Below are positions 1-34,472 of a stretch of DNA of 37,756 nt, in pieces (within the stretch, counting starts at the first letter, position 1; every line of letters starts with the position of its first letter). The stretch comes from Nemertoderma westbladi. Taxonomy: Eukaryota; Animalia; Xenacoelomorpha. The notes under the pieces are model-generated. The model had not been told where the DNA came from, searched no databases, and saw only the letters and a program-made list of their open reading frames with translations. A program made the translations under genes and the position numbers. The stretch spans positions 1 to 37,756 of the forward strand of contig JAUCBJ010006979.1 in assembly GCA_032718475.1 (NCBI GenBank), given 5' to 3'.

Positions 1-1065
1 ATCGTAATGGTACGTATATGGACTTCTTAACTACCGGCCACCCTATCGATTTACACGATACGGACGATGTGGATACCGAAAGGGAAATGGTTTTATTTAA
101 ATATCATACCCAACGGAATCGGAACGATAAGCCAAGAATGGAACACGAGAATTCTATTCGAAATCAACTCGAAGGATAGAACGTGGAAGAAGGTTGATAC
201 AGACAAATAAAGGAGAACCACTGGAGAAGAGACATGGGTTAATGTCCAGGGTCCATAATGTGAATAGTTTTCCCCGGGGCACGGGTGCTCGCGGGCGGTC
301 TCCTTCGGGAGGCTGTAACTTTCTCTTCCTTCATCGTTTTCCTGTAATTATTGTGATCAGTGTCACAATTAAAAGGCAAGAATGAATGATGATGTGACGG
401 AAAACACATCCATTGTGGTATCTTATGGATACTATCGTATATCCTCCCTCCTCTCTACTCCTCTTACCCTCTTATACATTGTTACTAAAGATACGACATA
501 TTTCGTCCCACCTTCTCTTCCCAACGTGCTCGGAGCTTTGGGAGACGATCGACCAATTAGTGCCGTATCTTGGTATGGATCATACCTCCTCTTACTAAAC
601 CCCCACACTTTAAAAATCATCTGGATGCTCATATGGTGTCCGCACCTCCTGTCCATGTGCCATTCTGTTGATATTTATGATATCAACTTCCACCCTCTCG
701 TTGTTGATTAGATAATCAACCACCACTAGGGATTTCCTTTAAAGTCCACGACCGTGATTCAAGGACTGAAAAGATACGCGGCTAATCTGTGAACAACTGG
801 TACCATTGTGTGTCATAAATCTGGTTGTTCACCTCCCTCAATGATTGGAGATATAAATCTTATAATCTTATGTAGAACAACTGAGGCATTGAACTGGTTG
901 TTCCCTCATCGCACTGGGGATAAATTCAGTTGGAGATAGTCCTCGAATGTTACAATCCTCCTACTGAGATCGTATTTCTTAATATTTTAGAATGCGAAAT
1001 AGTTTTTTCCTCTGCTCTACCATCACTGTCACTGTCGGAAAACATATTGGGCATACAACAGGAAT

Positions 1066-2841
1066 ATGGAGAACATTCCCTACCCCTTCGTTGATACTCA
1101 GCTGATTGCTCCTTGGGCAGAAGGCCGAGGTTTCTTCCGCACTATGTATGCCAATACACCCAGCGACATTACTAAAGTACAACGGACATCCATCGGACAT
1201 CTTGCCTTTCAAGAATATGGATGGAATTTCAAAGTTGGAAATCCTATCAATTACCAGCAAGTATATGGAGATCATTACTCTCGTTTATATTTTGATGGAC
1301 CATTAACTGCGCCTGGTGCCGTATATAGCTTTATGAGTGTTCCACTTCGCCCTTCCTTAGCTATATACACGATCTTTGAAAACGCAGCACTTGCCGGTTG
1401 GCTAGCCGATGTGTGCAGTCGTACCATACGCGCTCACCCATTAATACTTGGAACTAAACTCGCCAAGTTAGACGAACACAATAAGTTCATACGTTTCGAA
1501 TGTTTCCGGCGCTTTCTGACTCCGTTCCGTAATGTCGATAGTCAGTTCAAGGACCGCGCGCTGACCAAACTCAGTCTGAGAGACTCAGCTGCGGAGAAAC
1601 TGAGTAGCGCTGGATTTGCCGTTTTTCAAGACGTTTGTATACAGAACTTACATTCATCTGTTATACAAAGACCCCGAATACCTACAGGTTATTCTGTCGT
1701 GGAAATACAGACAGTGGATCCACTTACTGAGACAGACGCACCCACTTCGTCTATACAGCTGGAAGATGAACCAGTATGCTTGGAATCAGAAGCGATTCAG
1801 CCTACAGCTTCCCGGAGCAGTGACAATGATTATGTCATAGAGTGGTATCAAGGTCCACAACGTCTCACAGCGTACGATTATCGACACGCCAACTACGTTT
1901 CTCGAAAACGTTGTCGATTATGCGCATCGAGAGACCACTTCACCCCTCTAGACTCGAGCGTACCTTGTTCCTATTTCCTCGAACAACCGATGATGGAAAT
2001 ATATTGTGCTTATTGCAGGCTTAATAACTCTCATATTTTTGCCGTCTGCCCACAATTTATGACTCAATGTCACTACTGTCAACTTAAAGGACATGAAAGT
2101 TACAATTGTCCCTTTAATCGCGATTTAGAGAGCGTAGACGAGATGATCACCCTGCGATACATCCGAGCTTGGGAAGCGAACGCGGATTTACATTGCGAAT
2201 CCCGACATCGCTATTACCCTGGACGAGCTTACGAGGGAGTTTACGCGTTCCATCCTTATCTATTCGCGTCGATTGAACAGAAAACACGCGTACCAAGTTA
2301 CGAGTTAATGAAGCGTGTTGGTGAGTGTATTTCCACCAAGTTTGTCAGAAAATACCTTAGAAACGTTAACCCTAATGATATAACCACATATCACCTGATC
2401 AATTTTATCCGTCAGGACCCTGAGTATGGCGACATCTTTGTGAACTCGCATCCTGAACTACAGGAAGTATCTCGGCGACCATATGAATATCGAACCCGAG
2501 AACGCGAGCTGGAGAGAACCATTAAACAGAGAAAGTTCCTCACCACTCACGGTCCACCCACCACTAGTGTCCAGACGACCCGTCAAGGACCCGTAGGAGC
2601 TGCTGTCCTGAGACGCGCTCTAAAGGCCGTTAGACCTCGCTCCACTGAGGTTGATATTAATCAACCAGGTACTTCGACCGGCGGGTATACCGATCGTAAC
2701 CCTACACCTTCTGATGCAATTGTATTGCACCCTTCGCCTAGGAGCTACAGCCCTCCTCGTAAAGTGGCTCGCCCCAAAGAGAAAAGGACTCTTGCTAGCC
2801 TCAAGAAACTGCGTAAACGCCGTCCGCGTAAGAAAGACTAA
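1066..2841 (+). CDS. Retrotransposon accessory protein, copy A: C-terminal part of a DEDDy-type 3'-5' exonuclease domain, triple CCHC zinc-knuckle module and basic NLS-like tail (5' part degenerate upstream of 1066)
   Basis: 591-aa ORF. FVDTQLIAPW..F.R...SIGHLAFQEYGWNFK..YQQVY...IYTIFE aligns by eye with CVDTQTLLAW..F.R...GIGYLAVLNGGIDFK..YNKIY...IYVVME of the 23181 ORF. Knuckles CRLC..H, CAYCRLNNSHIFAVC and CHYCQLKGHESYNC; ends KKLRKRRPRKKD. Confidence 0.75.
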   Translation: MENIPYPFVDTQLIAPWAEGRGFFRTMYANTPSDITKVQRTSIGHLAFQEYGWNFKVGNPINYQQVYGDHYSRLYFDGPLTAPGAVYSFMSVPLRPSLAIYTIFENAALAGWLADVCSRTIRAHPLILGTKLAKLDEHNKFIRFECFRRFLTPFRNVDSQFKDRALTKLSLRDSAAEKLSSAGFAVFQDVCIQNLHSSVIQRPRIPTGYSVVEIQTVDPLTETDAPTSSIQLEDEPVCLESEAIQPTASRSSDNDYVIEWYQGPQRLTAYDYRHANYVSRKRCRLCASRDHFTPLDSSVPCSYFLEQPMMEIYCAYCRLNNSHIFAVCPQFMTQCHYCQLKGHESYNCPFNRDLESVDEMITLRYIRAWEANADLHCESRHRYYPGRAYEGVYAFHPYLFASIEQKTRVPSYELMKRVGECISTKFVRKYLRNVNPNDITTYHLINFIRQDPEYGDIFVNSHPELQEVSRRPYEYRTRERELERTIKQRKFLTTHGPPTTSVQTTRQGPVGAAVLRRALKAVRPRSTEVDINQPGTSTGGYTDRNPTPSDAIVLHPSPRSYSPPRKVARPKEKRTLASLKKLRKRRPRKKD

Positions 2842-9393: not shown

Positions 9394-10361
9394 TGTTCGC
9401 GGTATTTCAACTTTTCATAACGCGAGTTGAATACTTTTTGTATTTATTTAAAATGATTATTCCGATATCACTACTGGGTGCGGGACCATGGGTTTTGGGC
9501 ACATTCTATGAACTGGGGGCGATTTATGGGCGAACATTGGGGCAACTTACAGGGTATGGGAATAATTTCATATTTATAAGGGCCAGGGGTGGGAGGCAAA
9601 GTTAAGCAGTATTCAGGTTAGCCTGAGTACTATTAGGCCCTGGCCAACTTCCTGCTGCCTGTAGAGGTGGATTTGGTAACGTGCCAGGCCTAAAGGACAA
9701 GGACTGCCCTTAGCGGCCCCTGGCCAACAGCAGTTATTACGAGCCTGAAAAGGACATCGGAACGCCGGCTGCTTGTGCCAGGGATTTGCGACGGGAAACG
9801 ACAGCCCCCTTAGCTAAGCCGTACTGGTTCTCGATGATCGAACCCTTCGGGGTTCGGGAGGGGTGGGACGGATACGCGAATGGGTCCACTGACACGACAG
9901 ACTCCGAGCCAAGCCATACTGGTTCTCAATGATCGATCCCTTCGGGGTTCGGGAGGGGTGGAACGGACATGCGACAGGGTCGACCGACACCGACACTACG
10001 GCACTAAGACCAGGACCGAGGGAAAATCTGGGGAACATTAGGTAGGCTAAAATCTGAGCGAACAGTGGGTAATTAAATAATATACTGTAGGGATTTATAT
10101 TGTCGTGTATAATTATTGTGAATATTTGGTGTATATTGATTTGGGGAAGCCCAATTAATTATCAATCAGGATTCAACAGTAGGAAGTTACATTAAAGAGT
10201 ATATCCAACCAATGCAATTTTTCCTCAACCGCAATCCTGCATTCAAGATATCATTCCTTCTCCACAATCAATATCCGGTGACTGGCCGGGACTCTGTGGT
10301 CTGTAAAGTCACGTCTCCAGCATCGGCGTTTTCCCCCCTGGTGTTTGGGATAACGGCAACA
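9394..10361 (+). repeat. 5' LTR of BEL element (968 bp, 2 hairpin-repeat units)
   Basis: Near-identical to 25966-27457 apart from two internal deletions of 428 and 95 bp. Confidence 0.97.
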
Positions 10362-10434
10362 AAATTGAAAATTAAACGCGGCCAACTTCAACTGGTGGAA
10401 GTTGGGAATTCTACAATACTCTTCAAACAAAAGA

Positions 10435-10751: not shown

Positions 10752-10943
10752 ATGGAAGTATCGATCACACCCATTGATATCATCCAAGTTGAGCCAGGAA
10801 TCTGGCACGTTGAAGTGGAAGTACAAGGAACGAACGTCGGACGATTCAGGATTACCGTTCGGGTGGTCCAGGCTGAGTACGATACCTACGAGGAACTATT
10901 CTACGACATCGCATATCTAGCTATCAACGAGGCATTGGAATGA
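10752..10943 (+). CDS. Small 63-aa upstream ORF overlapping the gag start (ATGA)
   Basis: ATG-initiated; alternating hydrophobic beta-strand pattern followed by an acidic helix; stop overlaps the gag ATG by 4 nt. Confidence 0.4.
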   Translation: MEVSITPIDIIQVEPGIWHVEVEVQGTNVGRFRITVRVVQAEYDTYEELFYDIAYLAINEALE

Positions 10944-13900
10944 TGGCGAACAATGTATCCGATACCGATGAGATGGACCACCACACAGATTCGGAAGCCG
11001 ACGAGGTACCGAACGTCAAGAACATGACCCGTCGACTAGGGGCTCTCAAGGGCGGAGTAACTCGAGCGTATCAACGGATAGAGAAACAACTCAAGGAAAT
11101 TAAAACCCCCCTCAACGAGATACAAACTCAGCTTCAGAGTATCCGAAACATCCTGCAGCGATATGAAAGAATGATACAGGCGTACCAAGAGCTCGTTCCC
11201 TCCACTGATCAGGAAAACTACCCCAGGTTAGAAGAACATGTTGTACATCTAGATGGGTTCCGCAAACAACACCGGAGGACCCTTAGCCTTGTGAGAGGCT
11301 ACGAAGAACAGTACTACAAGAGAGCCGAAAGAACAGATGCAGAATCAGTGCGAACCTCCAGCACCAGGACAGCAATACATCGAAGGAAATCGGGGTCCTC
11401 GAGAAACCAGCACTCCAGCGCTAGGAGCGCGGTGTCCGGTTCAGCACACAGCTCTCAAGGGGGTCAACCACTCCGAGACCAGCTATGAGAACGGAAGGCA
11501 TTAGCCCTCAAAGCTCGGATGGAAGATGAGTATATTCAACTGCAAGCCGAGCAAGACGTATTAGCCGCCAAAACACAAAAACGAGAGGCCGAACAAGCGG
11601 CCGAACGGCAGGCCGAACAACGCGAACAGGAGGCTGAACAACATAGACGAGAGGCTGAACGACGCGAACAGGAGGCTGAACAACGTGGACGAGAGGCCGA
11701 ACGAGAGATCGAACAACGTAAATGGGAAGCAGAAATGCGTAAACAACACGCCGAGGCCCAAGCGATTCTCATCCACAAAAAGAATGCGGATATTGCAAAA
11801 CTCGCGGAATACGAAGCCGCACTTATAGAACGAGATATTCAACTCTACGAGGACTGGGAAAGGGATATAGATCAGGAATATGAACCAATCCCGGTACCGG
11901 AATTAGAGAAGTCATTTATACCGACAGCGGCGAAACTTCCGAAACCCGAGAATACGCCTACCAAACAGTCCACGTTATCGGCACAAGCACCAGTGTTCCA
12001 TCCCCCACCGGTTACACTTAAAAATGAGGAACCGTATTTCCCGTCCAACCCCACGGCAACGAGTGTACCCAAGTACGAGCCTGAAAGGGACTCGGAACGG
12101 GACGCCACTCCTCGATCCAACAACCTGTTTACATCCACACCACAAACCCATAGTCACGTCACCATTAAAACTCCACCTATCATTGATCCATCGAGTATGG
12201 GAGAGAGTGCCAATAACTATAACCCTCCGAGTCACTCCAGTTCAGACGACGTCGGCCTTATCCGGGCATTGGAAAACCGCCTTGCCATGCCCAAGATGGA
12301 GATCCGCACCTTTGAAGGAGATCCCGTCGATTACCTCAGATTCAAGAAACGGTTCTTTGCGCAGATTGGTTCAACAGATATAGCATAGTAGAAACTAGTA
12401 TATTTATCACAATACCTGGGTGACAAACCACGCCGAATTATTGCATGTTTTGAGGGAGGTTCTCATGAGGCATACTATGACGCATGGAAAACTCTAGATA
12501 AAAGATATGGAAATACCGGAACTATAATTAATAAAACTCTAGAGAGACTGATACAGGACGCGGGATCACTAGGGGACCCACAGAACATCCAGGAATTCAC
12601 CGACTCTATGAAGGATGCCTACTATACTCTGAAACCCTTAAATAAGGAGGACCAGGTGAACAACATTCTAAACCTCCGACAGATCGCCCGGAAGTTCCCC
12701 GGATGGCTACATAGTAAGTGGGCCTATAAATGCGTAGATCTCCAGCGCAGACATCCAGATCGAGATCCAAGCTTCCTTGAAATGTCGGCATTCCTGGACG
12801 ATATCTCCGAAGCCATGAATGACTCAATGTTTTCAAAACAGAGTCTTGCCAAGTTGGACGGAATAGAGAGCAACTCCAGGAGTAAGATACCCCCTCCGAA
12901 ACCGAGATTCCGCCCCCCACCGGTGAGTACGATGGCCATCACCATGGCCGAGGATTCCGACGACGAAGACTATGAGGAACCGACATCCGCCGAGGAATGG
13001 GCATGTTATCTCGCGAATTGGGCACCCGAGAGGGAAGGCATCACAAACTCCCTGCTCTGTCTCTATTGTGGAGAGAAAAATAAAGTTGAATTCTGCAGGA
13101 AGTTCCAGTTTGCCGAACTCGTCCCACGCTTCGAAGCGATTATGAAACACCGAGGATGCTTCCGGTGTCTTGGTACAGGTCACTACGTTCGGGAGTGTGA
13201 CCAAAGGTCGTGTTGTGCGGTTTGTAACGACCTACGTCATCACACGCTCCTCCACATCCCCGCGAACTTTGACTTCACTACCCTCCCCTTTCGGATTGAA
13301 ACAAAGCGAAGAGGAGAAACGAACCTCGTTTCTAAAGGATCCCGGACAACCCAACGGAGAGAAACCAACCCGTTTAAAACCTCCACTAACGCATCACAAG
13401 TGACAAATATCTCAGCCACGATCAACCTGATAAATCGCCATTACATGGTCTTCGCCAAAGTAATCCCAGTAAGAATTCAGGGAGTCGGCAAATCCTTGAC
13501 GACGCTCGCGTTCCTTGATAACGGGTCGGACGGAACCATCATCGACCGGGATTTCCTCGAGCAACTCGGCCTAGACTATGAACCTTACAAACGGCCCATA
13601 CAAACTATCACCGACAACAGAGAGGTAGACTCCAGGGAGGTGCAACTCCAGATGGAAGGAGTAATGAAGGGCTACGAAACGGTTAAGTTGACCATCAAGA
13701 ACGCCTTGGTACACATAGACCTCCGAGTGCGGTTCCGACAATCGGCCGAGTACGCCCCCCTCATACAGCTAGATCGAGACGACGTAGACCTAAGGTGCCC
13801 GCCATTGGATGTAAACCGCATCACTCTACTGATCGGACTTGATACACCGGAACTACACATCCCCACCGGAGATATCGCCCGATCTATAAAACAGGATGAC

Positions 13901-16553
13901 GGATTTTATGCTGAACGAACAATAATGGGATGGACACTCTGCGGCATTAAGGAGGAAACTACTGACACCTATACCTACCTTCCCAAATGTCAGATTAAAG
14001 AGAATGCAACCTCCGTGGGTTATTGCTCAGCTACGGACCTTGACGAGGATTTGTTTCTGGAGACCGAGAAAACCTAACAAGAGATGACGAAATATTTTAA
14101 TCTAGAGACCCAGGAATTCGCTGAAAAGGACGAAAACCCGTCCGAAGAGGATCAATATTGTATGAACGTTCTCGACCAGGCCACGTTCAAAGACGGACAC
14201 TGGTGTTCACCTATGTTATGGAAGGACCCAAACAAACCGATGGCAAACAACGCCAGCATGGCACTTAGGCGACTTAAGGGGATTCTACGCCGGCTGAATG
14301 ACCAACCCGAGATAAAGGAGAAATATAATACCGTTATCCAAGGATATCTCGACGATGGATTAGCAGAAATGGTACCACGGTATGAACTGCAAGGTGGTAA
14401 AAGAACATATTATCTCCCAACCCACTATGTGGTAGAAGCCCGGAAGGGTGGGAAAATCCGAGTGGTAAATGATGCCGCCGCTATGTACCAGGGTGAATCC
14501 CTAAACAGTCAGCTTTACACGGGACCCAACATATATAGTACACTCATCGGCGTATTGATCAGGTTCAGGGAAAACCGGGTAGCATTCACCTGCGACATCA
14601 AGGCCATGTTTCATCAAGTTCGTACGCTACCAAGAGACTCAGACTGTCTACGTATCCTATGGACGGATAAAACACTAACTCAACAGGAGATTAGTCAACT
14701 TACGATAAAGGACGTAGACATAATGCGTATGGTCGTCAGGATCTTCGGCGCTAAGGACTCGCCGGTAGCATGCAGTGACATGCTGAAGAGGACGGCAACT
14801 ATGTGCGAAAACGAGTTCCCTCCAACCGTCATAGAAACCATCCGACGATGTTTTTACGTGGACGACGGATGCGCTGGCGCAGATAATGTGGACGAGGCAT
14901 ATCAGCTAGCAATGGGGATGGTAGAATGTCTAAAGAAAGGAGGTTTTCCGCTCGTGAAGTTCAGATCCCACGACAAAACACTTATGGAAAAGTTTCCGGA
15001 GGACATCCGACTGGAAAATAACAAAATGTATTCGGAGGATGTGGAACACCGTGTACTCGGGATTGAATGGGACATAGAATCAGACGAATTCATTTTCAAA
15101 TATAAACCCCTACCCAAGCCTATGACAAAAAGGGGATGTTTGTCGATAAAAAGCGCCATCTTCGACCCACTAAATTTCATATCTCCAGTAACCTTGGCCG
15201 GAATGAACCTGATTAAGGAAATGTGGATAGAAGGACTGGGATGGGACGAAGAACTCCCCCCACACCTCAGCGTCAAATGGAGAAAATGGACGGAGCAGCT
15301 CGAACACCTACATCTTATGCGGATACCTCGACCGTTTTTCCTCGATAAACTACCCACCGATATCTTCCAGCTCCATACCTTCTCGGATGCTTCGAATACC
15401 GGAATTGGCGTAGTCACCTTCTTACGAAGACTAAGCAACGACGGAAATGGTGATACGAGCTTCTTATTTTCTAAAGCTAAGACAGTATCCGGGGAATTCG
15501 TAGCAACGATTCCACGACTCGAGCTTCAGGCTGCAGTTTGGGCAGTAAGACAGAATCGCATGGTCATGCGGAACCTACGAATCCCCATCGAATCTTAACA
15601 CTTCTGGGTCGATTCGAGTATAGTTCTCTATTATCTCCACTCTCCATCACAGCGTCACACTACGTTTGTTGCGAACCGAGCCACGGAGATTAAACAGTGT
15701 ACCGGCCGGGAACAGTGGCACCACGTGAACGGGAAAGAAAATCCAGCGGACTTATCAAGCCGAGGCGCCACACCAAAACAACTCGGTAAAAGCAAACTCT
15801 AGCTTACAGGCCCGGAATTCCTACAGCAGCCACAATTAACATGGAGTACCCGATTCGACCCCGAACTCGATAGCGGAAAATACTCCGAGGACAATAAAGA
15901 GATCCGCAAAATCCATAGAAGCAATGCAGTGGAAATTTATAGTTGTCTGACTGAGCCTGCAAAGGACTCGGGCAGGCACTATAACGTCGCGACGATCACT
16001 CAACCAGCGGCGTCTTTACATCTGTTGATCGAGCGAACTTCATCAATGAGACGGCTCATCCACCACATTATAACCCTTCGCAACTTCCTACGGTGGAAAG
16101 ACAACAAACCGATAGTTCAACAAGAACTCATTATCGCGGAGAAGTGTATCGTTGGATATGTCCAGAGAGAAAGTTTCCCCGATGAGTGGGAACAACTTAG
16201 TGCGGGCAAAACCTTGAAACCGGACAGCCCAGTCTACCAGCTGAGACCAATGATGGGAGAGGACGGACTGATCCGACTAAATACCCGGATGGCAAACGCC
16301 CCGGTCGAATATGAGGTTAAATACCCAGCGCTTCTGCCCGGAACGTCAACACTAGCCAAGCTATTAATTCAACAATGTCACGAGGAAAACCATCATGCAG
16401 GACAGAACTGGATTATAGCTAATATAAGACAAAGATATTGGATCACCAACATCCAGCCACTGATCCGGAAAGTGTTGAAACGTTGCTTTACCTGCAGAAG
16501 ATATCTAGCGCCACCACTCACCCAAAAGATGGCCGACTTACCAGCCACCCGCC
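10940..16553 (+). pseudogene. BEL gag-pol polyprotein, 5' part (Gag, protease, RT, RNase H, integrase zinc finger)
   Basis: ORF pieces at 10940, 11519, 12608, 14084 and 15929 share one frame, separated by point stops at 11486, 12386, 14075, 15596 and 15800. Motifs: CFRCLGTGHYVREC / CAVCNDLRHHTLLH, FLDNGS, YYLPTHYV, KIRVVNDA, DIKAMFHQV, FYVDD, FSDAS, TIPRLELQAA, HEENHH..CFTC. Confidence 0.96.
11580..11735 (+). repeat. Coding ~21-bp repeats (EAEQ/REAE coiled coil) in BEL Gag
   Basis: Repeated GAGGC(C/T)GAAC(A/G)AC units. Confidence 0.8.
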
Positions 16554-16725
16554 TATAAGATATAAATGTGTCAGTTATTCAAAATGTATTAATCTTATAA
16601 TCATCTAGCACTGTCAGACTACAAACCGCACAATCCTGCAATGACCAGAATACCAACCACCACCACAGTTACACTCAGCAGTCCGCAGCCTATAATAATC
16701 CATCCATCTATCTCACCCATATCTT

Positions 16726-16781
16726 ATATTCCCCCCAGTTTGTAAAATAAACTATCTGTGTTCTCATATTCCCCCCAGTTT
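16726..16781 (-). promoter_or_regulatory. Polypurine tract of the Gypsy element, present twice
   Basis: AAACTGGGGGGAATAT on the minus strand at 16726-16741 (at the LTR junction) and again at 16766-16781. Confidence 0.85.
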
Positions 16782-16842
16782 ATAGTAAACGTATATTTAA
16801 CACCATGTTCAAGTAAATAGCTCCAATCGATATTTAGCTAAT

Positions 16843-19800
16843 CTAAATCCCATATCTCTCCGGTGGTTTCGAATTTCTCCCCGCTCGAGTTACATATCCT
16901 AACTCCGGAACGACCTCAATATCATTTGCATTACTTCTATCATCTATATTGTCGTTGTCATCATCCTCATTGTAATTCACTGTAGTGTCATCATCATTTA
17001 CAGTTTCATCATCTGAACTGTCCGTGTCCATCTCATCTTCAATGTCAATATTCCTGTCAATGTTCCCATTGTATGTCACGTCCAGTTGGTTACCGACGTG
17101 AATCTTTCTAACATCCTGTAGATGATGTCTGATACCCTTTACTACAACCGACCATTCATCTGGAATTTCCTCTACTTCCATTGGTCCTTTCCACCTTTTG
17201 TAGCAACGCCACTTCTGTTCAGGCTTGACGTAAATCAAATCTCCAATTTTATATGGGTTGTCTATTACCTCTCTGTCTTCTAGCAGCTTTGTTATGCCAG
17301 GCAACTTTTCCACTCGTTCACCCATGACTTTCTGAATTGGTGTCTGGTTATCTTTTACTGATGTTCTGTTGTACCAGAATGTAACTTGAACTGGATCTTT
17401 CTTAGATCTTGACGCCCACGCTTTTATAGTTCGATGCATTCTTTCGACGGGATTTCCCCTAGGTCTGTATGCGCACGAAGGCTTCAGTTTCACCTCCCAT
17501 TTATTTAAGAAACTTTTAAACTCATTGCTGCGGAACGCAGGACCATTATCGGGTATAATTTCTTCAGGGGGTCCCCACTCTATAAATATTCGCTGTAGAA
17601 TTTTAACGGCCTGTGCGCTTGTTTTATTAGGCACTTGATTCCAAATAGTAAAATTAGAGTTACAATCCATAACTGTTAGATAACTGTGAGTCCCATACTC
17701 AGAAAAATCAGTAGATAATCTTTGCCAACTCCTATCAGTTTTACAGCTGCCTGGTTTCAGTTTCACTGGTACAGGGTCGATGCTCTTACATTCTTCACAC
17801 TTTCTACAAACCTCTTTAATTGCTTCTTTACAATGGTCTGTTACACTGCCTAGATTCCTGTCTGCTTTACATAGATTCTTTAGTCTATCAGATCCCACAT
17901 GTACCACTTCGTGTAATTCCTTCACTCTTTCCTCAATGTCCGCATAATCTGCGGTTCCATTGGTCTCTGTAACAGTTACTGCAGCTACTTCGACTTCTGG
18001 TTTTTTTAGCCATTTTTTTGGTATACGAGTTAAACAGTCAGCTCGATTCTGCTCTGATGGAACTAGATGCAAAGTTGTTTTTAACTGAAATTCGTCCACA
18101 GTTTTCTTGAGAAGTTCCAATCTTCGTCTTATTAACATTTTAGACATTCCCTTAGTGCGAATGCGGTGTTCATCTTTCAGCATTGCATTTACCCATCCAT
18201 ATACCGGTGCCGAGTCAGTATATAATTGTATTTCTGTTAATTCCCACTGTATTGCCATATTTACCCCTTCAATTAATGCGCTAAGCTCGGCTGAGTTTAT
18301 GTGTTCTGGGTGATCGTTTTTACGTAACCATGATCCATCCTCAGCTGTCTGTCCCCCGATTCTCACCATCGCCCCAATGGCCAAGTTACTAGCGTCAGCC
18401 CAAACTTCGCCACGTTTCGTATCACTTATAGGCCACGAACCACCCACTGGATCTGCTCGTTGCACTCGGTTAACCACCTCAACTAATTTATCTCTAGTTC
18501 CCTTGTCTATTACTGAATCCATTGGAACATTTGCTGCCTGGCGTTGCAGCCAACTCAATGACACTCGCAACCATCCCTCGATCAAATAGTTTCCTCGTAA
18601 TTGTCCTACCACTGATAGCAGTTTTCTATGAGTTAATGGGTTCTCGATCTTTTCTGGGTCTGGAATGTCACTATCTCGTTTCCACTTCCCCCCTTCCACA
18701 GCGACTCCGAGGACTCTGGCCCCACCTTTAATTTCTATTGCTTCCTTGGTTTCAAGTCCGAACTTTTTAAGATGTTGCCTTACGTCATCTGCTGTTACAC
18801 CTGTTTGTAAATCTGCATATATGTCATCCCTAAAACTGTCTGTCGATTCCTTAATTCGATCATTCTGTCCCAGTACTTTTTCTACAATAGTATCCAATAT
18901 TTTGGGTGCCGGGCCCAACCCAAACCCAAGTCTAGTCATGCAGTACCTTTTTCCTTTGTAACTGACTGTTTGGTATGCCTGTAGTGCCGGTGCTATTCTT
19001 ATCTGCATGTACGCCCACTTTAAGTCGATTATTGCTGTATTCTCGCCCATTCTTATCCAGTGCCTTAACTTTTCGTTACTTGCTGCTGCCTCCACCCCTG
19101 GTTGCTTTATTAAGTATTCGTTTAATTCTCTAAAATCCATAATGGGGCGCACTCGATCTTTGCGGGGTTCATTTTTATACATCAGAGGTATCAGTGCCAT
19201 ATAATCACCCTCAAATTCTTGCAACCATCCCTTCTCTATCCACTCTCCTACTCCTTTCTCATACTTGCTACGTAGTTCTGTTGGAATATGATATTCCCGT
19301 ACTGTATTGTTTAGTCTACCTGGTGGAGAGCCAGCTTCGAATTTGTACTCCACTTGCCAATTAGTACCATCGAAAACTGCACAAAAATCGTCTTTATCTA
19401 TTCTTAGTATTGGTTCTGTAGTCGTTTTGGCTACTGCTGATACTGACCATTGTCCCCCTGACCCGACACTTACTTCCATTTTACCGTCGTCTGTTCCTAT
19501 AAATGAAATGCCGTTGCTTTTCTTTATTAAGTCCCACCCATATATCATATTTAATTCTCCTACTATATGATCAACAACCAAGAATTCCCAAACAAACTCC
19601 GGCATCCTGTCAATCTGTAACACAGTACTAACCTTTCCTACCAACTGCGTAGCTGTAGACCCGTCTAACATAGTTATGTTTGATTTATTACCTGGTTCCT
19701 CAAATGTTCCATTAATTCTCGCTGCGAACTTCCGCGATAATATACTCCTGCTACACCCAGAATCGACCAATGCTTCCACAAATTTCCCTCCACAATTCAC

Positions 19801-19881
19801 ATTTTTCGTCGGAAGATCACCGACTTGTCCTCCGGGGAGACGACCGCTGGCACACACGACGCCTCCCCCTATTCGTTTCCC
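16843..19881 (-). CDS. pol: Gypsy Pol (protease, RT, RNase H, integrase), expressed by -1 frameshift
   Basis: Uninterrupted ~1010 codons. Motifs: LVDSG; MDFRELN, IDLKWAYMQI, RLGFGL, FRDD; WADAS, INSAEL, YTDS, NRADCLTR; HEVVH..CEEC, STDF, PDNG, VERMHRTIK. Confidence 0.93.
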   Translation of the reverse strand, partial: GKRIGGGVVCASGRLPGGQVGDLPTKNVNCGGKFVEALVDSGCSRSILSRKFAARINGTFEEPGNKSNITMLDGSTATQLVGKVSTVLQIDRMPEFVWEFLVVDHIVGELNMIYGWDLIKKSNGISFIGTDDGKMEVSVGSGGQWSVSAVAKTTTEPILRIDKDDFCAVFDGTNWQVEYKFEAGSPPGRLNNTVREYHIPTELRSKYEKGVGEWIEKGWLQEFEGDYMALIPLMYKNEPRKDRVRPIMDFRELNEYLIKQPGVEAAASNEKLRHWIRMGENTAIIDLKWAYMQIRIAPALQAYQTVSYKGKRYCMTRLGFGLGPAPKILDTIVEKVLGQNDRIKESTDSFRDDIYADLQTGVTADDVRQHLKKFGLETKEAIEIKGGARVLGVAVEGGKWKRDSDIPDPEKIENPLTHRKLLSVVGQLRGNYLIEGWLRVSLSWLQRQAANVPMDSVIDKGTRDKLVEVVNRVQRADPVGGSWPISDTKRGEVWADASNLAIGAMVRIGGQTAEDGSWLRKNDHPEHINSAELSALIEGVNMAIQWELTEIQLYTDSAPVYGWVNAMLKDEHRIRTKGMSKMLIRRRLELLKKTVDEFQLKTTLHLVPSEQNRADCLTRIPKKWLKKPEVEVAAVTVTETNGTADYADIEERVKELHEVVHVGSDRLKNLCKADRNLGSVTDHCKEAIKEVCRKCEECKSIDPVPVKLKPGSCKTDRSWQRLSTDFSEYGTHSYLTVMDCNSNFTIWNQVPNKTSAQAVKILQRIFIEWGPPEEIIPDNGPAFRSNEFKSFLNKWEVKLKPSCAYRPRGNPVERMHRTIKAWASRSKKDPVQVTFWYNRTSVKDNQTPIQKVMGERVEKLPGITKLLEDREVIDNPYKIGDLIYVKPEQKWRCYKRWKGPMEVEEIPDEWSVVVKGIRHHLQDVRKIHVGNQLDVTYNGNIDRNIDIEDEMDTDSSDDETVNDDDTTVNYNEDDDNDNIDDRSNANDIEVVPELGYVTRAGRNSKPPERYGI
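19834..19881 (-). promoter_or_regulatory. -1 programmed ribosomal frameshift signal
   Basis: G GGA AAC heptamer (19881-19875) in the gag frame, 6-nt spacer, then GGGGAGGCG/CGTCTCCCC stem. Confidence 0.88.
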
Positions 19882-20744
19882 GGCTTCGTCGTCGGGATGA
19901 ATGCCACGCACCCTCTCGCTAAATGGTCAGCACCCCCGCATCTAAAGCAACCCGTGTTCGGTTTAACAGTCCCTGTCGCAGTTCCGCTCTGGTTTCTATT
20001 CCCTAAATTTCCTACGTCGCTGTAGCACTCACGCGCAAAGTGGCCGGGTTTACCGCAACGGAAACATCCTGACCCTCTACCCTGATCTCCTCCCCGTGAC
20101 TCCATACCACTGTCCCGTCGCCAGTTCCCTTTATAATCTCGATTCGAATCCGCAGTTGGACGATAATATCCCTTGTTTCCCTGCCTATCCCCGTATCTCG
20201 CCGCCGCCCCTACCAGCTGAGCTTCGCTTCGCTCCGACTCAGACAATAACCGCCTTGCCTGTGCTAACAGTTTACTCAAATCCGTCTCACCTGCTAACGC
20301 CTTCGTCTCGTTTTGTATTTCATCCGGTAGTCCACTCACGAATTGAACCGCCAATATCTGCTGCGCGCACCTAGATTGAACATCGCCCCCAGTGACCAAC
20401 CCTAATAACCTCTTCAGTTCTGCCAGAAACGTATCTGGCGATTCCTTTTCCTTCAGTCGACGCTGTTTGTATTGCTCGAACGCCGTATATTCGTTGATTG
20501 CGAATGCTGTTATCAATGATCGTTTCAGAATATCATAGTCCGCCTTTTCTGCATCCGATAGCTGACTAATTACGTTGTACGCTGCGCCCTCCATTGACAG
20601 TCGCAAATAGGTTGCCCGCGATTCCTCTTTCAATCCGGCCTCCGCTTTCATCACGTCGTAAGTGTCATCGAACCTCATTAGCCAAGCAGATGGATCACCC
20701 GTACCATTGTACTTTTTAACATAATCCGAAAGTTTCGGAGCCAT
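19869..20744 (-). CDS. gag: Gypsy Gag with two CCHC knuckles
   Basis: ATG at 20744; capsid-like region (RRLKEKESPDTFLAELKRL..QFVSGLP); CFRCGKPGHFAREC and CFRCGGADHLARGC. Confidence 0.93.
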   Translation of the reverse strand: MAPKLSDYVKKYNGTGDPSAWLMRFDDTYDVMKAEAGLKEESRATYLRLSMEGAAYNVISQLSDAEKADYDILKRSLITAFAINEYTAFEQYKQRRLKEKESPDTFLAELKRLLGLVTGGDVQSRCAQQILAVQFVSGLPDEIQNETKALAGETDLSKLLAQARRLLSESERSEAQLVGAAARYGDRQGNKGYYRPTADSNRDYKGNWRRDSGMESRGGDQGRGSGCFRCGKPGHFARECYSDVGNLGNRNQSGTATGTVKPNTGCFRCGGADHLARGCVAFIPTTKPGNE

Positions 20745-20755
20745 CACTGCTGCAA

Positions 20756-20767
20756 GGCCGGTTAGCT
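20756..20767 (-). promoter_or_regulatory. Putative primer-binding site complementary to nt 1-12 of tRNA-Ile(AAU)
   Basis: AGCTAACCGGCC directly follows the 5' LTR; metazoan tRNA-Ile(AAU) begins GGCCGGTTAGCTCAG (from memory). Confidence 0.65.
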
Positions 20768-20947
20768 TATAAGATATAAATGTGTCAGTTATTCAAAATG
20801 TATTAATCTTATAATCATCTAGCACTGTCAGACTACAAACCGCACAATCCTGCAATGACCAGAATACCAACCACCACCACAGTTACACTCAGCAGTCCGC
20901 AGCCTATAATAATCCATCCATCTATCTCACCCATATCTTATACCGCC

Positions 20948-21918
20948 TACAAGCAGATTCCCCACCATCCTACGTCACCGGAGTGGACTGCTTCGGACCG
21001 TTTACGGTCATCAAACGGCGATCCAACATCAAATGCTGGGGAGCCATCTTCACCTGCCTTAGGTCTAGGGCAATCTACCTAGACATTGTGGTAAACCTGA
21101 CGCAACACGCATTCATCAACGCTCTGCGTTGTTTCGTGGCGAACAACGGGACATGTCGCCACATGTATTCCGATAATGGTACAAACTTTGTGGGAGGAGA
21201 ACGAGAACTTAGAGAGGCGATCGAGGGATGGTTTACCGACAACACCGCATCCCAAGTCTGGAAGGAACACCAGATACAGTGGCATTTCCAGACCCCCTTA
21301 GCACCCCATACGAGCGGGGTATGGGAGAAACTGATCGACTTTAGGAGACACCCGGGTAACCCATGACACCCTCCGCACAACATTCTGCGAGATCATGGCT
21401 ACCCTGAACAACCGGCCCATTGTCCCTATCCGCGACGACCCCACAGACCTGGAGCCCCTCACTCCTAACCACCTACTGGGGAAACCCAAAACCCATGTTC
21501 TCCCAGAGACCATGTTTCCGGATCCCAGCGATATCGCGAGACATACAAATTGGAAGAAGGCCCAAGCCTGGCAGCGCATTGGTGGAGAATCTGGGCCCAG
21601 GAATATCTCATAACCCTCCGGACCAGGAGGAAGTGGAACAACACCTACAGGAATGTTGCAGTTGGCGACATGGTATTAGTAAAAGAAGATCTCAAAGACC
21701 GCGTCCACTGGCCTGTGGCGCGAGTCGTGACCATACACCCGAGCAAAGACGGACTTGCGAGGACTGTGACGATACGTACGGCAAAGGGCCACTACCAACG
21801 CCCTATCCAGAAGCTGTGCCTTCTTGAAGGCAATGACAGTGGTGATTCTACGAGAGGTGATAAGTTCCCTACTACGGATCCTGCTGCGGACATTGGTGAC
21901 AATGATAAACCCGTTTAA
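20948..21918 (+). pseudogene. BEL integrase core and C-terminal (DUF5641-like) domain
   Basis: GVDCFGP, FTCLRSRAIYL, YSDNGTNFVG, GVWEKLI, LNNRPI, LTPNHLL, WWRIWAQEYL..L..R.KW, WPVARV, RPIQKLCLL; deletion/frameshifts near 21335 and 21565. Confidence 0.95.
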
Positions 21919-22187
21919 ACCCTTCTCATCCTGTTGACAAACTTTAAACTGTGATTTACTGACAATGAAAATGGACCCCCCTTAAACCAACTGTAACCAC
22001 GCAATGGTATTTGTGTTTCCTCGTGTGTTATGTGGAGTCCAGCGTCACCCTGCAGATGTTTCGACTGACGCAGGGTCGTTTATGTATTGTTTACCCTGAT
22101 TTTGGTCATCGGGACCAATGATATTGGATTATTGGAAATGGTAAAGATTTGAAGTGGAATTCATTGTATCCATTGTAGTATGTTATG

Positions 22188-22612: not shown

Positions 22613-23180
22613 CACAACAAAAATTTACCAAAGAAGATGATTGAATGTAGTTGGAAATGATGAAAAGAAACAGACAACTCTACTATAAACCGAATGATGA
22701 CGCGTATGATGATGAAAATGTAATGATGCGCACCCTGGTGCTGCGCTTATAACAAATGATGATAGCCGGGGGGCTATAACCCCAATGATGACGTGGAAAT
22801 AAATGAAATGTGAAATAAATGTGAAATAAATGAATAAATGGTGGAACTAAATGATGAAATATGTGTTGAAATAATGAAATGTGAAGTGAAATAATAATGA
22901 GAAATGGAAAAAGACAAAAAAAAAATGTATAAAATGTATTAATAAAGAATTGGAAAAAGAAGAGGACATAAAAAGTCATAAAACTGGTTGGATATTAATG
23001 TATAGCTATAGTAACTGTAAATGCTGAATGTATTAGCAATAAGATGGTAGATGCCTATATAGCAATGTTATTTAATAAACTGAATTAAAATTAAACTGAA
23101 TTATTCTGCAATCACTATAGTTTCAGACTTTCTGGACTTATAATTAATTGATCTAATTTGCAACGGACATAATCGTAAAT

Positions 23181-25787
23181 ATGGACCCAAATCGCCAAAT
23201 TATCGGCGAATTACGTAATACGATAGATCTACTGGAATATCCGCAACCTGGATCCCCTAACTTTGATACAAATTGGAACGCCCTGATAAATGAGAACGTG
23301 CGAGTCGTTAAATTCACCGGGCGAGAGGGACCGGACTCCAAGAATCTACGAGCCCTCCGGTTGGCCGATGCTAGTACGAGACTGAAAACAACTCGGAACG
23401 CAAAGGCCACCGGAGAGGACGAGATGTCGTACTGGGATACGTTCCGGCAAAGCGTCTACAAATCCCGATGTCTGATATACGACAACGAAGGAAACGCGAC
23501 GCCTACCTCAAAAGCGATTACGTTGGCGAGATGTCAAAGTTTCGTCGACGATAAGAGTACGTACCTCGCCCACTGGAGAAACCTGTCGGAGTGTACGGCG
23601 ACGCTACGAGAGGAACGTATATCGATCATCCAGAATCGCGACGACTACCAGGAAAAGTACGGGGCGAAAGAATACGGTCGATCCTTGGTCGTCGTCCTCG
23701 GAACCCTGGACGGTTTGGTATTGGTGTGTCGAATATTCCTGACACCCAGGCAGGAAGTGCAGGCAGCCGGAGCGATCTGGTTACTACCTCCGGAAGTCCA
23801 AAAGATCCTCTTCGACTTCGACATCATTAAAATTGGGTCGGATATAAAGGCAGACGTCCGGAACGACTACGCGAACGCTCCTTTAGGAAGAGACCGTTGA
23901 GACGACCTCAACGCCCTTAGTCATTGCGTCGACACCCAAACGCTATTAGCCTGGTTACGATTCGCCGAGTTCATGCGAGGTTTCCGCGAGGTGAGACCGA
24001 CGAAATCCGGGATCGGCTACCTCGCCGTGCTAAACGGCGGCATCGACTTCAAACCTCAGAAATTCCGGGATTATAATAAAATATATGATGGATACCCGGG
24101 ATTAGAAATAAAGAGCGAGCGAGAGGGTCGATGGAAGGACGTTGAGAGAAAGTGGACGTTACACCAAAGGTTGGAGAATCCAGATCGACGGAGCTACATC
24201 TACGTCGTTATGGAATCATACACCGTCGCTAAGTTTATATGTAAAACTCTCGACAACCTCATTACGGCGGTTCCTCTTTCCTTCGTCGACTATGACTGGA
24301 ACGAGGTTATAAACCACGCGTTTAAAGCGGTCGAGAACATTACACCGGGAGAGACGAAAACGCTCACCGTTATCGATTCCTGGGACAAGAAAGGAACCTT
24401 ACAACATCCCTACGATTACCGATCTTCTCGGCGCGGAGGAGCCTCTGATTTCTTCGGAAGGGGAAGAACTATGGCTACAGGAGGGCGTTCTATTAACCAC
24501 CCCAAAGCGACAACTCGAGCCGGAAGCCGCGTACGGACCGGCTGCCAAACGGGTTGCCTCCGCCGAGCCTGCGACGGAAGCGGGCGCTTCCTTCCCACGC
24601 GGCTCCGGTAGCCCTGCGAGGGAGGTAGCCACTACCTCCGCATTGAGCGACTTCGGTGACATATGCCAAAGGTTATCCCCATATCCTTTCCCGGGTGGCG
24701 AAGAGTGGTCTTTGGAGATTCCGAGTACCAGCAATCAACGGTCCCGCTCAGCGATACTGGTTGAAAAAGGTCCCAGCGCTGCGCCGACTCCCGACGATCT
24801 CCTCGGTATCCCTCCGTCGAAAACCCCGGCACCTCTTCGCCGACCAGTGGTGGCTACTACACCTTCCGTTCCTCAGGATCCTATGCGATTAACCCGTTGG
24901 TACCCGAGCAAACCGAATGGATCCACCGTCAGAAACGGTCGTCCGAGTTGAGACCGGCAGGACACAAAGAAGGTTATCGGAGCGAGAACCTACTACGCAA
25001 AAGCCCAGCCTTTCGCGGGCTACCGGCCACTGCGAATATTCAAAAGAGCGATCGACGACTCGAGTACTACGTCGGCATTCCGATTCCAATATTCCCCGGT
25101 CGAGAGATGCAGCTGGAGGTGTGCGGTAACTGCGGTTCGGAGCAGTGCCCACGTGGTAGTAGAAATCGGGTTACCGATTCGTGTCTCCAGCTCATCGGGA
25201 TACTTTATTGCCCATACTGTGCGACATCGGGCCACGACGTTTCTGTCTGTCCGATCCTATATAACCTCTGCACTACGTGCGGGTTCCGTGGACATTCCGC
25301 TAGCCCCCGCTGCTATATCAAATGTCCTACTAAAGACGTTACCGCTATGGGAAATATGGTCATGTTTGAAACCTACGCAAACAGCCACATAAGGACCAAG
25401 GTTCGGAGAAACGCTCGGAATATCGCGCAGGAGATGCAGATGGCGTGCGGGTATTTCTCCTTCCCGGAACGCCTCCACACGTCGGCCACGCTACCTTTCC
25501 ATTACATGGATCTGTTGCTGAGCGCCGGATTATTCGGCCCATTCGAAGTCATTAGACGCTTATACTCGTATAAAGAGGAGTTCGGTGACGGAGAGTGGTT
25601 CCTAGAGGCGCGCAACACCGAGTTGGAAAGACGAACCGATATGATCCCGATGCCATCGAAAGGAAGAGCCGCCAGGAGACAAGCCGAAGCGTTGCTCACG
25701 ATGGATGTTGACGCTCCCCTTCCAGCTCTAGCGATCGATGAGAGTCGACGGGCGAAGAGGAGAAAGGCGTATCAAAGAAAGAAATAG
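23181..25787 (+). pseudogene. BEL accessory ORF, copy B (~869 codons): DEDDy/WRN-like 3'-5' exonuclease, Pro-rich linker, triple zinc knuckle, basic tail
   Basis: ExoI-like IYDNE (23481-23489); LPPEVQKIL.D.DIIKIGSDIKAD (ExoII); VDTQ; GIGYLA...GIDFK; ExoIII-like YVVME (24201-24215); knuckles CPYCATSGHDVSVC and CTTCGFRGHSASPRC. One in-frame stop (23898) and two mutually compensating frameshifts (~24400, ~24920). Confidence 0.8.
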
Positions 25788-25965
25788 TGGACCGGGATAT
25801 TCCAGGAACATTTATTGAACATTTATTTTTATACACATATATATCTATAAACTCTAGGCCAAATTAATTAAGACTATGCAATATTAAATTTGGGTTTTTT
25901 ATATTGGGAATGACCTACGCAAACTCAATCTACCGATAGACCTCACGAAGGTCATTGGGGGGGAC

Positions 25966-27457
25966 TGTTCGCGGTATTTCAACTTTTCATAACGCGAGTT
26001 GAATATTTTTTGTATTTATTTAAAATGATTATTCCGATATCACTACTGGGTGCGGGACCATGGGTTTTGGGCACATTCTATGAACTGGGGGCGATTTATG
26101 GGCGAACATTGGGGCAACTTACAGGGTATGGGAATAATTTCATATTTATAAGGGCCAGGGGTGGGAGGCAAAGTTAAGCAGTATTCAGGTTAGCCTGAGT
26201 ACTATTAGGCCCTGGCCAACTTCCTGCTGCCTGTAGAGGTGGATTTGGTAACGCGCCAGGCCTAAAGGACAAGGACTGCCCTTAGCGGCCCCTGGCCAAC
26301 AGCAGTTATTACGAGCCTGAAAAGGACATCGGAACGCCGGCTGCTTGCGCCAGGGATTCGCGACGGGAAACGACAGCCCCCTTAGCTAAGCCGTACTGGT
26401 TCTCGATGACCGATCCCTTCGGGGTTCGCGAGGGGTGGGACGGACATGCGAAAGGGTGGCCGACTAACAGAGGACGGGTTTGACGAGGACTGCCCTTAGC
26501 GGTCTCTGGTCAACAGCAGTTATTACGAGCCTGAAAAGGACATCGGAACGCCGGCTGCTTGTACCAGGGATTTGCGATGGGAACCGACGACAGACCCCTT
26601 AGCTAAGCCGTACTGGTTCTCGATGATCGATCCCTTCGGGGTTCGTGAGGGGTGGGACGGACATGCGACGGGGTCGAAAGACAAAGGACTGGACGCTACT
26701 GGCCTACCGACTGTTCGGAGCAGTTTCTCGGCTGCCGAAGCGACTACGAGCCTGAATAAGGACTCGGAAAGCCTAGGTGGTTGGGTCTCTGCGATGAACC
26801 GACGGACCCCTAGCCAAGCCGTACTGGTTCTCGATGATCGAACCCTTCGGGGTTCGGGAGGGGTGGGACGGATACGCGAACGGGTCCACCGACATGACAG
26901 ACTCCTAGCCAAGCCGTACTGGTTCTCGATGATCGATCCCTTCGGGGATCGGGAGGGGTGGGACGGATAAGCGACAGAGTCTACCGACTGGACCGACCCT
27001 TAGCCAAGCCGTGCTGGTTCTCGATGATCGATCCCTTCGGGGTTCGGGAGGGGTGGAACGGACACGCGACAGGGTCGACCGACACCGACACTACGGCACT
27101 AAGACCAGGACCAAGGGAAAATCTGGGGAACATTAGGTAGGCTAAAATCTGAGCGAACAGTGGGTAATTAAATAATATACTGTAGGGATTTATATTGTCG
27201 TGTATAATTATTGTGAATATTTGGTGTATATTGATTTGGGGAAGCCCAATTAATTATCAATCAGGGATTCAACTGTAGGAAGTTACATTAAAGAGTATAT
27301 CCAACCAATGCAATTTTTCCTCAACCGCAATCCTGCATTCAAGATATCATTCCTTCTCCACAATCAATATCCGGTGACTGGCCGGGACTCTGTGGTCTGT
27401 AAAGTCACGTCTCCAGCATCGGCGTTTTCCCCCCTGGTGTTTGGGATAACGGCAACA
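25966..27457 (+). repeat. 3' LTR of BEL element (1492 bp, 5 hairpin-repeat units)
   Basis: Follows the PPT; ~68-bp core starts at 26383, 26600, 26811, 26906 and 27001. Confidence 0.97.
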
Positions 27458-27462
27458 TGTAG

Positions 27463-33449: not shown

Positions 33450-34472
33450 ACTGACTAGAGGAAGTCGCTAGGAAAGAGGGGAGGGAGGCAGCAGGTAGAG
33501 AGGCAGATATAAGGGGAGGGGAATATGATTTTGAGGCCCAAGATTTGGATGAGTTGAGGTGGGGATTGGAGGCCTCGGGTGAGTTTCGGCTAGGGATGAG
33601 GTGGATTGGATGGAAGAGATACCGATACAGTCAACATCTGGACTGCAGGGAATGCCGATACCTGGGGGGACCGAGGGCGACTTTGGGAGGAAGAGACCGA
33701 GAGCGATGGAGGGGTGGAGGGTTACGGGCGAGTACCAGGCCGGGAAGGGACATGGTGGATCAACCAGGATCCCGGGCTTGGAACCGCTTGTGGCAGAGGA
33801 AGTAGAGGAGGACGAGTTCGGAGAGATGCCGCCGATAGCAGATAGAGAGGATCGGCCGGCCGGACACGGTCTGGGTGTACGGGAGAGTGGTGACAGCCAG
33901 CGGGGCGAGAGCCTTCTGGGACGCACCCGGCAAGCGAGCCTGGGAGCACAGGGAGCCGTCGTCCGGCAAACACGATTCGGCTAGGCGAGCAACCAGGGGT
34001 GGCACCACAAGTAGTATTTGGGGAGACGATGCCGAGGGAAGAGGATGGCATCGACATGGGTAGGGACGATAAGGTGGAAATGTTGATGTATCAACGGCTC
34101 CATAGACCCAGGAGGCTACGCGGAGCCAAGGATGAGTGTGACAGACAGTGATAGACGGTTGCGACTACTGTGGGAGATTAACCCATCAGCAGAAGAATTG
34201 TCTGTATCGTTACCAAACAGCCAAAAGGGGGCGACATGTCTATATTGTCACGAGTCTACCGATAGAATGGGCGCATGCCCGAGGCTGCACCATAGGTGTA
34301 CGAAGTGTAAGTTTAGGGGGCATTTTGAGCGCCAGTGCGACTGGATCGACAATGAGGAGAAGTTCCGTATTTACGAGGACTGGGCCGACGTCGGAGTCAT
34401 GAATAGGCAAAGGATGAAGGCCCAGAGGAGTTCCGGTGGGGGTTTTTCAACATCACCAGGAGATTACTAAGA
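33450..34472 (+). pseudogene. Degenerate accessory ORF, copy C (linker and triple zinc-knuckle module), 5' part
   Basis: CDYCGRLTHQQKNC, CLYC.....RMGACPRLHHRCTKCKFRGHFERQC...YEDWADVG..R.R....WGFF across frameshifts; collinear with copies A and B. Confidence 0.7.

Follow-up and report, generated by a model that had tools for sequence, protein, structure and literature searches.

What kind of protein can the env position of a BEL/Pao retrotransposon hold, and what might that protein do for the element? The question is raised by contig JAUCBJ010006979.1 of Nemertoderma westbladi (Xenacoelomorpha; assembly GCA_032718475.1), which was analyzed over its positions 1 to 37,756 on the forward strand; this 37,756-nt stretch is called the window throughout. 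Within it lies a BEL/Pao long terminal repeat (LTR) retrotransposon with a third open reading frame (ORF3) behind pol. The layout of ORF3, a predicted exonuclease joined to zinc knuckles, is shared with an intact homolog, and its copies carry a clear mark of selection.

A selected third gene in the env position

The original prediction placed a sense gene of about 869 codons between the integrase and the polypurine tract, which is confirmed: ORF3 runs from an ATG at 23181 to a stop at 25787, begins 1.26 kb past the pol stop (21918) and leaves 170 nt between its end and the G-rich tract (25957-25964), behind which the 3' LTR follows. Every motif that had been listed is present and in order, namely IYDNE (D101, E103), LPPEVQKILFDFDIIKIGSDIKAD (D225), VDTQ, SGIGYLA..GGIDFKP and Y341-x3-E345, and these are followed by a linker, three Cys/His knuckles and a basic tail. 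The copy in the window is interrupted by a premature stop and by frame breaks near 24.4 kb and 24.9 kb, with the Pro-rich linker read in a second frame (Table 1).

The host element (9394-27457) is assigned to BEL/Pao by its Pfam domains. Gag-pol up to the nested insert matches DUF1759, zf-CCHC, Asp protease, reverse transcriptase (RT), Peptidase_A17 (E 9e-36) and Integrase_H2C2, and the remainder of the integrase matches rve and DUF5641 (E 1e-29). The order Gag, protease, RT, RNase H, integrase with BEL-type domains is thus read from Pfam domains and not from an RT tree. Both LTRs have TG...CA ends, an identical 5-bp target duplication flanks them, and a G-run that serves as polypurine tract precedes the 3' LTR. 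The length had been put at about 13.5 kb without nested inserts; we compute about 13.7 kb without the gypsy-like insert, which exceeds the 4.2-10 kb range of the family (PMC8742986). The insertion is young, as the LTRs differ at four places across their first 400 bases, and the present copy is dead because of stops in gag-pol and the gypsy-like element nested in its integrase.

Variation among copies was taken from four public runs (X1-X4) of three studies; one run may be the window's own source. ORF3 is covered along its whole length by contigs in many variant forms, with 5056 contigs over 4.8 kb in X1. Most copies lack the premature stop and the first frame break: 96-97% of summed contig depth, which is not a copy number, reads otherwise at 23898-23900 in two runs, and 88-100% differs by an insertion or deletion at the first break. 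In one X4 contig, about 80% alike, the nuclease and knuckle parts are kept and the linker is different.

ORF3 is a gene under purifying selection, because synonymous differences among its copies outnumber non-synonymous ones by 28 to 11. These counts come from 23440-24240, where 40 of 41 differences were listed, the one at the stop was excluded and the remaining 39 were classified, each alone; 30% would be expected to be synonymous (p 6e-8). With the two remaining reading frames, only 8/39 and 5/39 of the same differences come out as synonymous. Five further differences in this region (2 synonymous, 3 not) bring the totals to 30 and 14, and none of the 11 non-synonymous changes falls on a motif codon. 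The original prediction turned in part on whether sister copies have a ratio of non-synonymous to synonymous change (dN/dS) near 1; omega in this region is about 0.17. Elsewhere in the gene, among 40 of 756 listed differences, 7/8 in the C-terminal part and 1/2 in the linker are synonymous.

Relatives of ORF3 and the predicted nuclease fold

A phmmer search with the nuclease part of ORF3 against 1.84 billion representative proteins returned one match, P0002 (E 5.4e-6, 29% identity), which is an uninterrupted, unnamed singleton of 648 residues. P0002 has the layout of ORF3, in which the exonuclease is followed by a linker, three zinc knuckles and a basic tail, and, having been found by the nuclease part alone, it also matches the ORF3 knuckle part and the module behind it (E 2e-10). 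At only 29% identity, the two proteins still share the D, E, D and Y of motifs I-III. The window holds two more relatives. A diverged member outside the element (1003..2841), whose N-terminal nuclease half was not found, matches P0002 in the second half of the nuclease and in the knuckles (E 1e-5 and 1e-4), and a fragment at 34087..34470 retains the knuckles and the start of the post-knuckle module. Motif III reads Y-x3-E in 3/3 family members, and the basic tail is present in 3/3 complete C-termini. Because P0002 and the two window relatives carry its parts, the predicted exonuclease-knuckle architecture is old and recurrent, and purifying selection together with an independent intact homolog of the same architecture makes ORF3 more than a chance reading frame. 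Past the end of the 1003-2841 frame, a purine-rich stretch is followed by TGT (2905-2925) and could mark where the polypurine tract of a second element meets its LTR; no partner LTR for it was found in the window.

Other searches added little to this family. Word-index searches gave 0/4572 candidates for the nuclease part against longer proteins, 0/3232 for the knuckle part and, for P0002, only itself among 7988, each a weak negative at below 30% identity. A scan of viral contigs held nothing relevant (one match, L001, at 20% identity, was taken as chance), and a plasmid scan gave noise only. Among metagenome contigs there was one 22-residue knuckle match (L002:9115-9180, on a eukaryotic contig), located among decayed gypsy pieces and with no nuclease match near it. 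As judged from these searches, ORF3 belongs to an undescribed sequence family.

The fold of the nuclease part was approached through P0002 and through the family as a whole. Against Pfam PF01612, P0002 scores E 0.2 and 11.9 bits, below the curated cut-off of 23.6. In the ESM Atlas, the scores of P0002 are 0.94-0.95, its first three matches are unnamed fungal clusters, 24/30 matches lie in the PF01612 set, and the best cluster has PF01612 on 34% of its members; these scores are not calibrated for protein parts, and the query was P0002, not the ORF3 read-through. A knuckle query scored below 0.9. We also made PF01612 profiles from 35 of the 41 bacterial loci tried (28 short stand-alone and 7 RNase D), leaving out six without the anchor pattern. 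The nuclease part of P0002 exceeds 500/500 shuffles on all three profiles, and the 1003..2841 member beats shuffles on one of the three. A three-row family alignment, A5, matches the joint PF01612 profile in hhalign with probability 83.6, E 8e-6 and score 41.5, a score reached by 0/100 column shuffles (maximum 21.2), in a register that brings the D-x-E of motif I, the two strands behind it, the Asp of motif II and the DTQ into line; against two sub-profiles, A5 gives only 9 and 29. The D-x-E of motif I and the Asp of motif II are hhalign-aligned in P0002, and motif II is also aligned to ORF3. AlphaFold models reached a predicted local distance difference test (pLDDT) value of only 32 and 40, the alignment being too shallow, and Foldseek found no match for the first. 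No HRDC domain was detected after the nuclease in three members with an 11-row bacterial profile, whose scores are equaled by 89-105 of 300 shuffles and which a diverged domain could escape.

Taken through P0002, the nuclease part of ORF3 very probably has a DEDDy (RNase D-like) fold, and we lean toward a site that would still bind metal and RNA 3' ends despite the change from Asp to Glu in motif III. The original identification, in which a BEL/Pao element has a third gene that is separate, not env, and encodes a DEDDy-like 3'-5' exonuclease with zinc knuckles, is supported, with the fold reached via P0002 and not via a structure. In agreement with that prediction, a hydropathy scan, the one method used for this, found neither a signal peptide-like N-terminus nor a C-terminal membrane anchor in ORF3. 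The caveat is a 19-residue stretch (residues 169-187) hydrophobic enough for a membrane anchor (Kyte-Doolittle value 2.3); in the alignment it falls on two beta strands of the nuclease profile, and P0002 has no comparable stretch (maximum 1.2).

The C-terminal part is predicted to bind RNA. For the knuckles of P0002, HIV-1 nucleocapsid is a match at E 1e-4 and Air2 a weak one at E 0.06, and ORF3 has one exact and one near-exact copy of the retroviral-type spacing CX2CX4HX4C. Its basic tail resembles a nuclear localization signal. The LTRs of the element contain tandem UUCG hairpin units, two in the 5' LTR (9830-9958) and five in the 3' LTR (26402-27053), each with an asymmetric internal loop that fits a kink-turn pattern by its 3-nt bulge and tandem G-A pairs. 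An Rfam search gave no match. As a separate observation, about 32 nt of the ORF3 N-terminal region (23370-23405) resemble an LTR repeat unit (26300-26335, 26514-26549) on the same strand, by chance or shared origin.

Possible roles of the ORF3 protein

We tentatively read ORF3 as an accessory DEDDy-type exonuclease-knuckle gene of a multi-copy BEL/Pao family, whose product would work inside the nucleus, where its target would be the 3' ends of transcripts made from the element itself. The predicted protein is soluble and separately encoded, with 1.26 kb of non-coding DNA between pol and ORF3, and combines a domain of the type that acts on RNA 3' ends with knuckles of a single-strand-binding kind and the basic tail. 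Its flexible linker would join the exonuclease to nucleocapsid-like knuckles that could load it onto element RNA, possibly at the tandem LTR hairpins as a candidate binding site; the basic tail would take it to the nucleus, where it may trim or shield the 3' end of the element RNA, so that the transcript would escape host decay and silencing. Apart from the family profile PMC8742986, the papers cited from here on are represented by portions of their text, and statements about them hold for those portions. Action on the nuclear RNA of the element itself is given first place because of the nucleocapsid-like knuckles, the basic tail and two precedents: Egalitarian, a DEDDy domain that binds stem-loop RNA (10.1101/2025.08.03.668247), and CERV, an accessory protein of a retrotransposon whose target is that element's nuclear RNA (PMC10309623). 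Counter-silencing would come second, followed by a dead adaptor and proofreading, an order that no result discriminates.

Several results weigh against this assignment. The DEDDy call for ORF3 is transitive, because only P0002 scores and ORF3 alone does not. The expectation that the nuclease part would match PF01612 therefore held for P0002 and the family alignment and failed for ORF3 by itself, whose score on the three profiles is reached by 22, 500 and 40 of 500 shuffles and whose hhalign probability is below 1. Pieces of ORF3 have no match in Pfam, zf-CCHC included, and the nuclease part gave none or noise among Protein Data Bank sequences. Motif I was placed by eye in ORF3, from the match of the preceding helix and strand to P0002, across about 57 extra residues. 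The Y-x3-D of DEDDy enzymes was not found in motif III, which reads Y-x3-E and lies outside the hhalign match; catalysis is uncertain because of this Glu. The family is defined by three sequences only, and of these P0002 and the 1003..2841 member may or may not be element-borne. In the first 86 codons of ORF3, 4/6 listed differences are non-synonymous and 2/6 synonymous. The second frame break (about 24.9 kb) may be common to many copies, as the share of depth without it is only 1-50% in X1-X3, against 100% in X4 (loose contig ends lie there in X1). The LTR hairpins are a possible docking site for the ORF3 protein, with no support beyond chance from folding energy (z -0.8 to -1.7, not significant) or covariation (a single pair has changes in both partners, no more than shuffles show). 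Finally, the choice of substrate, RNA or DNA and self or host RNA, is a guess from family precedent.

It is rather unlikely, though it ranks next, that ORF3 encodes a counter-silencing nuclease that protects the family in trans by degrading or over-trimming piRNAs and siRNAs of the host, or the precursors of these. Its cellular relatives mut-7, EXD1 and Maelstrom work in small-RNA pathways (PMC5408684), a separate gene could act in trans, and the family is abundant, with the contig number in X1 given above and three diverged members in one 38-kb window. However, in rotifers small RNAs still cover the elements that carry such ORFs, and the ORF is not clearly tracked by copy number (PMC5408684). 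Binding of the element's own RNA fits nucleocapsid-like knuckles at least equally well.

Less probable again is a catalytically dead or weak RNA adaptor, in which the nuclease fold would only grip RNA, as in EXD1, Exuperantia and Egalitarian transport, and would export or localize the genomic RNA. The Glu of motif III in all three members, the large insertion after motif I, the tandem LTR hairpins and the ability of Egalitarian to bind RNA without its catalytic residues (10.1101/2025.08.03.668247) are consistent with such a role. On the other side, the D, E, D and Y of motifs I-III persist in a 29% identical homolog and show no non-synonymous copy differences, and rotifer ORFs with an altered tetrad (DEED) were judged possibly active (PMC5408684). 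Similarly improbable, and a shade more speculative, is a scheme in which ORF3 would mimic the nuclear RNA-surveillance pair Rrp6 and Air2, dock on kink-turn-like LTR hairpins and either shield element RNA or destroy silencing RNAs, as part of an undescribed counter-defense family passed among element lineages.

Proofreading or polishing of cDNA ends, in which a protein packaged with the RNA would clear mismatches and overhangs from 3' ends while the long, 13.7-kb genome is reverse transcribed, is quite doubtful. DEDDy enzymes can act on single-stranded DNA, and the knuckles could bring the ORF3 protein into particles. The element is longer than the range given for its family (PMC8742986), and end processing has been proposed for Dada transposons (PMC3706591). 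Yet ORF3 is not fused to Pol, its basic tail points to the nucleus, its DTQ motif aligns with RNase D, and much longer LTR elements have been described with no such domain named in the portion available (PMC6431247). ORF3 is not an envelope protein, and a passively captured host gene fragment or env-like membrane protein, which the env position, the hydrophobic stretch and the broken present copy might suggest, is so improbable, given strong purifying selection, the hydropathy result and the lack of a close cellular homolog in 1.84 billion proteins, that we rejected both on hydropathy and selection.

Surroundings and known parallels

Table 1. Features of the BEL/Pao element, of ORF3 and of its relatives in the window
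Feature	Position	Strand	Basis or remark
5' LTR, TG...CA	9394..10361	+	self-blastn and end sequences
5-bp target-site duplication	9389-9393 and 27458-27462		flanks both LTRs
gag-pol up to integrase zinc finger, several in-frame stops	10877..16553	+	Pfam
Nested gypsy-like LTR element, ~175-bp LTRs, 5-bp duplication	16554..20942	-	sits in BEL integrase
Remaining BEL integrase (rve, DUF5641)	20943..21918	+	Pfam; pol stop at 21918
Non-coding spacer, three ~80-nt repeats and A/T-rich stretch with six AATAAA	21919..23180	+	
ORF3, 869 codons of span	23181..25787	+	broken by one stop and two frame breaks
Predicted DEDDy-type exonuclease domain	23290..24260	+	~57-residue insertion after motif I
Putative motif I, D101-x-E103 (IYDNE)	23481..23489	+	by eye against P0002; unaligned by MAFFT
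Motif II Asp, D225	23853..23855	+	aligned to P0002
Premature in-frame stop (TGA)	23898..23900	+	
Motif III, Y341-x3-E345	24201..24215	+	Glu in place of DEDDy Asp
Pro/Ser/Ala-rich linker, poorly conserved	24393..24960	+	between two frame breaks
Three zinc knuckles	25122..25313	+	one degenerate, one CX2CX4HX4C, one CX2CX4HX5C
Conserved post-knuckle module	25365..25520	+	fold unassigned; FE.[YW]A..., G[YF]F.FP......LPF.Y..LL
Basic C-terminal tail	25743..25787	+	
Polypurine tract, G-rich	25957..25964	+	
3' LTR, five tandem UUCG-hairpin units	25966..27457	+	TG...CA ends
Second, diverged family member, outside element	1003..2841	+	C-terminal nuclease half, linker, knuckles, basic tail
Third family fragment	34087..34470	+	knuckles and post-knuckle module start only; E 7e-9

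Directly after the 5' LTR (10362-10410), no tRNA primer site, which in BEL/Pao elements would be for tRNA-Arg or tRNA-Gly, is obvious; a TGG about 27 nt downstream lies inside a hairpin of 8 bp (z -2.3). The three repeats of the spacer behind pol are direct copies at 22188-22609. In X4 there is an A-run behind 22923, after several AATAAA, and a loose end before 26176, 30 nt past a TATA-like box (26146-26176), which resembles a cDNA template-switch oligo. X4 may be a cDNA library, and these ends may then hint at transcripts that start in the LTR and end in the spacer that separates pol from ORF3, with the limits that contigs cannot show ends and that the run is not recorded as RNA. The nested gypsy-like element has LTRs that are 99% identical and end in TA...TA, not TG...CA, with a long open pol containing DUF7047 and a separate gag with two knuckles. 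Elsewhere lie long nested inverted repeats at 5058-8105 (arms of about 1.2 kb, 83-97%), similar to foldback elements or miniature inverted-repeat transposable elements, and, both judged by eye on the minus strand, a C2H2 zinc-finger array frame (29489-30145) and a non-LTR reverse transcriptase fragment (35300-36175). Positions 1-1082 gave no Pfam match in six frames, and a tRNA search found none.

The novelty of ORF3 was overrated in the original prediction, as a 2017 paper already reports DEDDy ORF3s from rotifer LTR retrotransposons (PMC5408684). In rotifers, such genes, with a DEED tetrad and untested function, occur in the LTR elements Juno and Vesta and also in Terminons (Rodriguez et al. 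2017, PMC5408684), an account repeated in reviews (PMC5718144, PMC6431247, PMC6338049); a DEDDy third gene in an LTR retrotransposon is therefore a known kind, found in rotifer gypsy-like elements. Like the ORF3s of bdelloid Juno1/2, Vesta2/5 and Athena/Terminon, the present one is a free-standing RNase D-like gene after pol (PMC5408684), lacks a membrane domain or coiled coil, has an altered catalytic tetrad and may be shared by diverged elements. Unlike it, the rotifer genes reside in four lineages that are not BEL/Pao (Juno, Vesta, TelKA, Mag; PMC5408684), their tetrad is DEED where ours is D-E-D-E, and no C-terminal triple knuckle is described for them in the portion available, a separation made by description.

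Among cellular PF01612 proteins (RNase D/Rrp6, WRN exonuclease, Mut-7/Nibbler, EXD1/2, Egalitarian), ORF3 shares the motif order and, via P0002, the profile match; it is set apart by its great distance, the Glu in motif III, the undetected HRDC domain and its own C-terminal knuckle module. As in Belpaoviridae with env-position genes, the third gene sits between pol and the polypurine tract (PMC8742986; Atlas virus, PMC9094657), whereas the third genes named in the ICTV profile, which gives genomes of 4.2-10 kb, are env-like glycoproteins only, with no nuclease (PMC8742986). Dada (DEDDy, PMC3706591) and KolobokD (DEDDh, PMC9587614) are likewise mobile elements with DnaQ-like exonucleases, but they are DNA transposons with no knuckle fusion described in the parts available, and the Dada domain lies inside the transposase. 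The likeness to CERV of C. elegans Cer1 (PMC10309623) is a functional analogy only, between nuclear accessory proteins acting on their own RNA, and no homology is claimed.

The literature on BEL elements yielded no direct precedent. No word in the PMC3118150 main text begins with "nuclease", though the sequence file of that paper could hold such ORFs unannotated, and the available portions of PMC554778, PMC9094657, PMC11662393 and PMC3985635 name no BEL-borne nuclease; PMC3985635 does contain a cluster of uncharacterized Caenorhabditis exonucleases of unassigned context. Paper titles and abstracts gave no BEL-borne exonuclease or exonuclease-knuckle ORF3; Repbase and GyDB lay outside this search, and a BEL precedent is possible. 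A nematode Cer element that belongs to the BEL group is said to have an exonuclease, which we have neither confirmed nor excluded. What is new is the BEL/Pao host, the triple-knuckle module, the Glu in motif III and the undetected HRDC domain, and of these the BEL/Pao host and the knuckle fusion were not found in print.

Overall, ORF3 indicates that the third ORF of BEL elements need not be env. Few accessory proteins are known for animal LTR retrotransposons, and it is an open question by what means families that are large and abundant survive silencing by small RNAs. A selected nuclease-knuckle gene in BEL/Pao extends the rotifer observation to another superfamily, and its intact natural homolog, P0002, makes the question of function testable.

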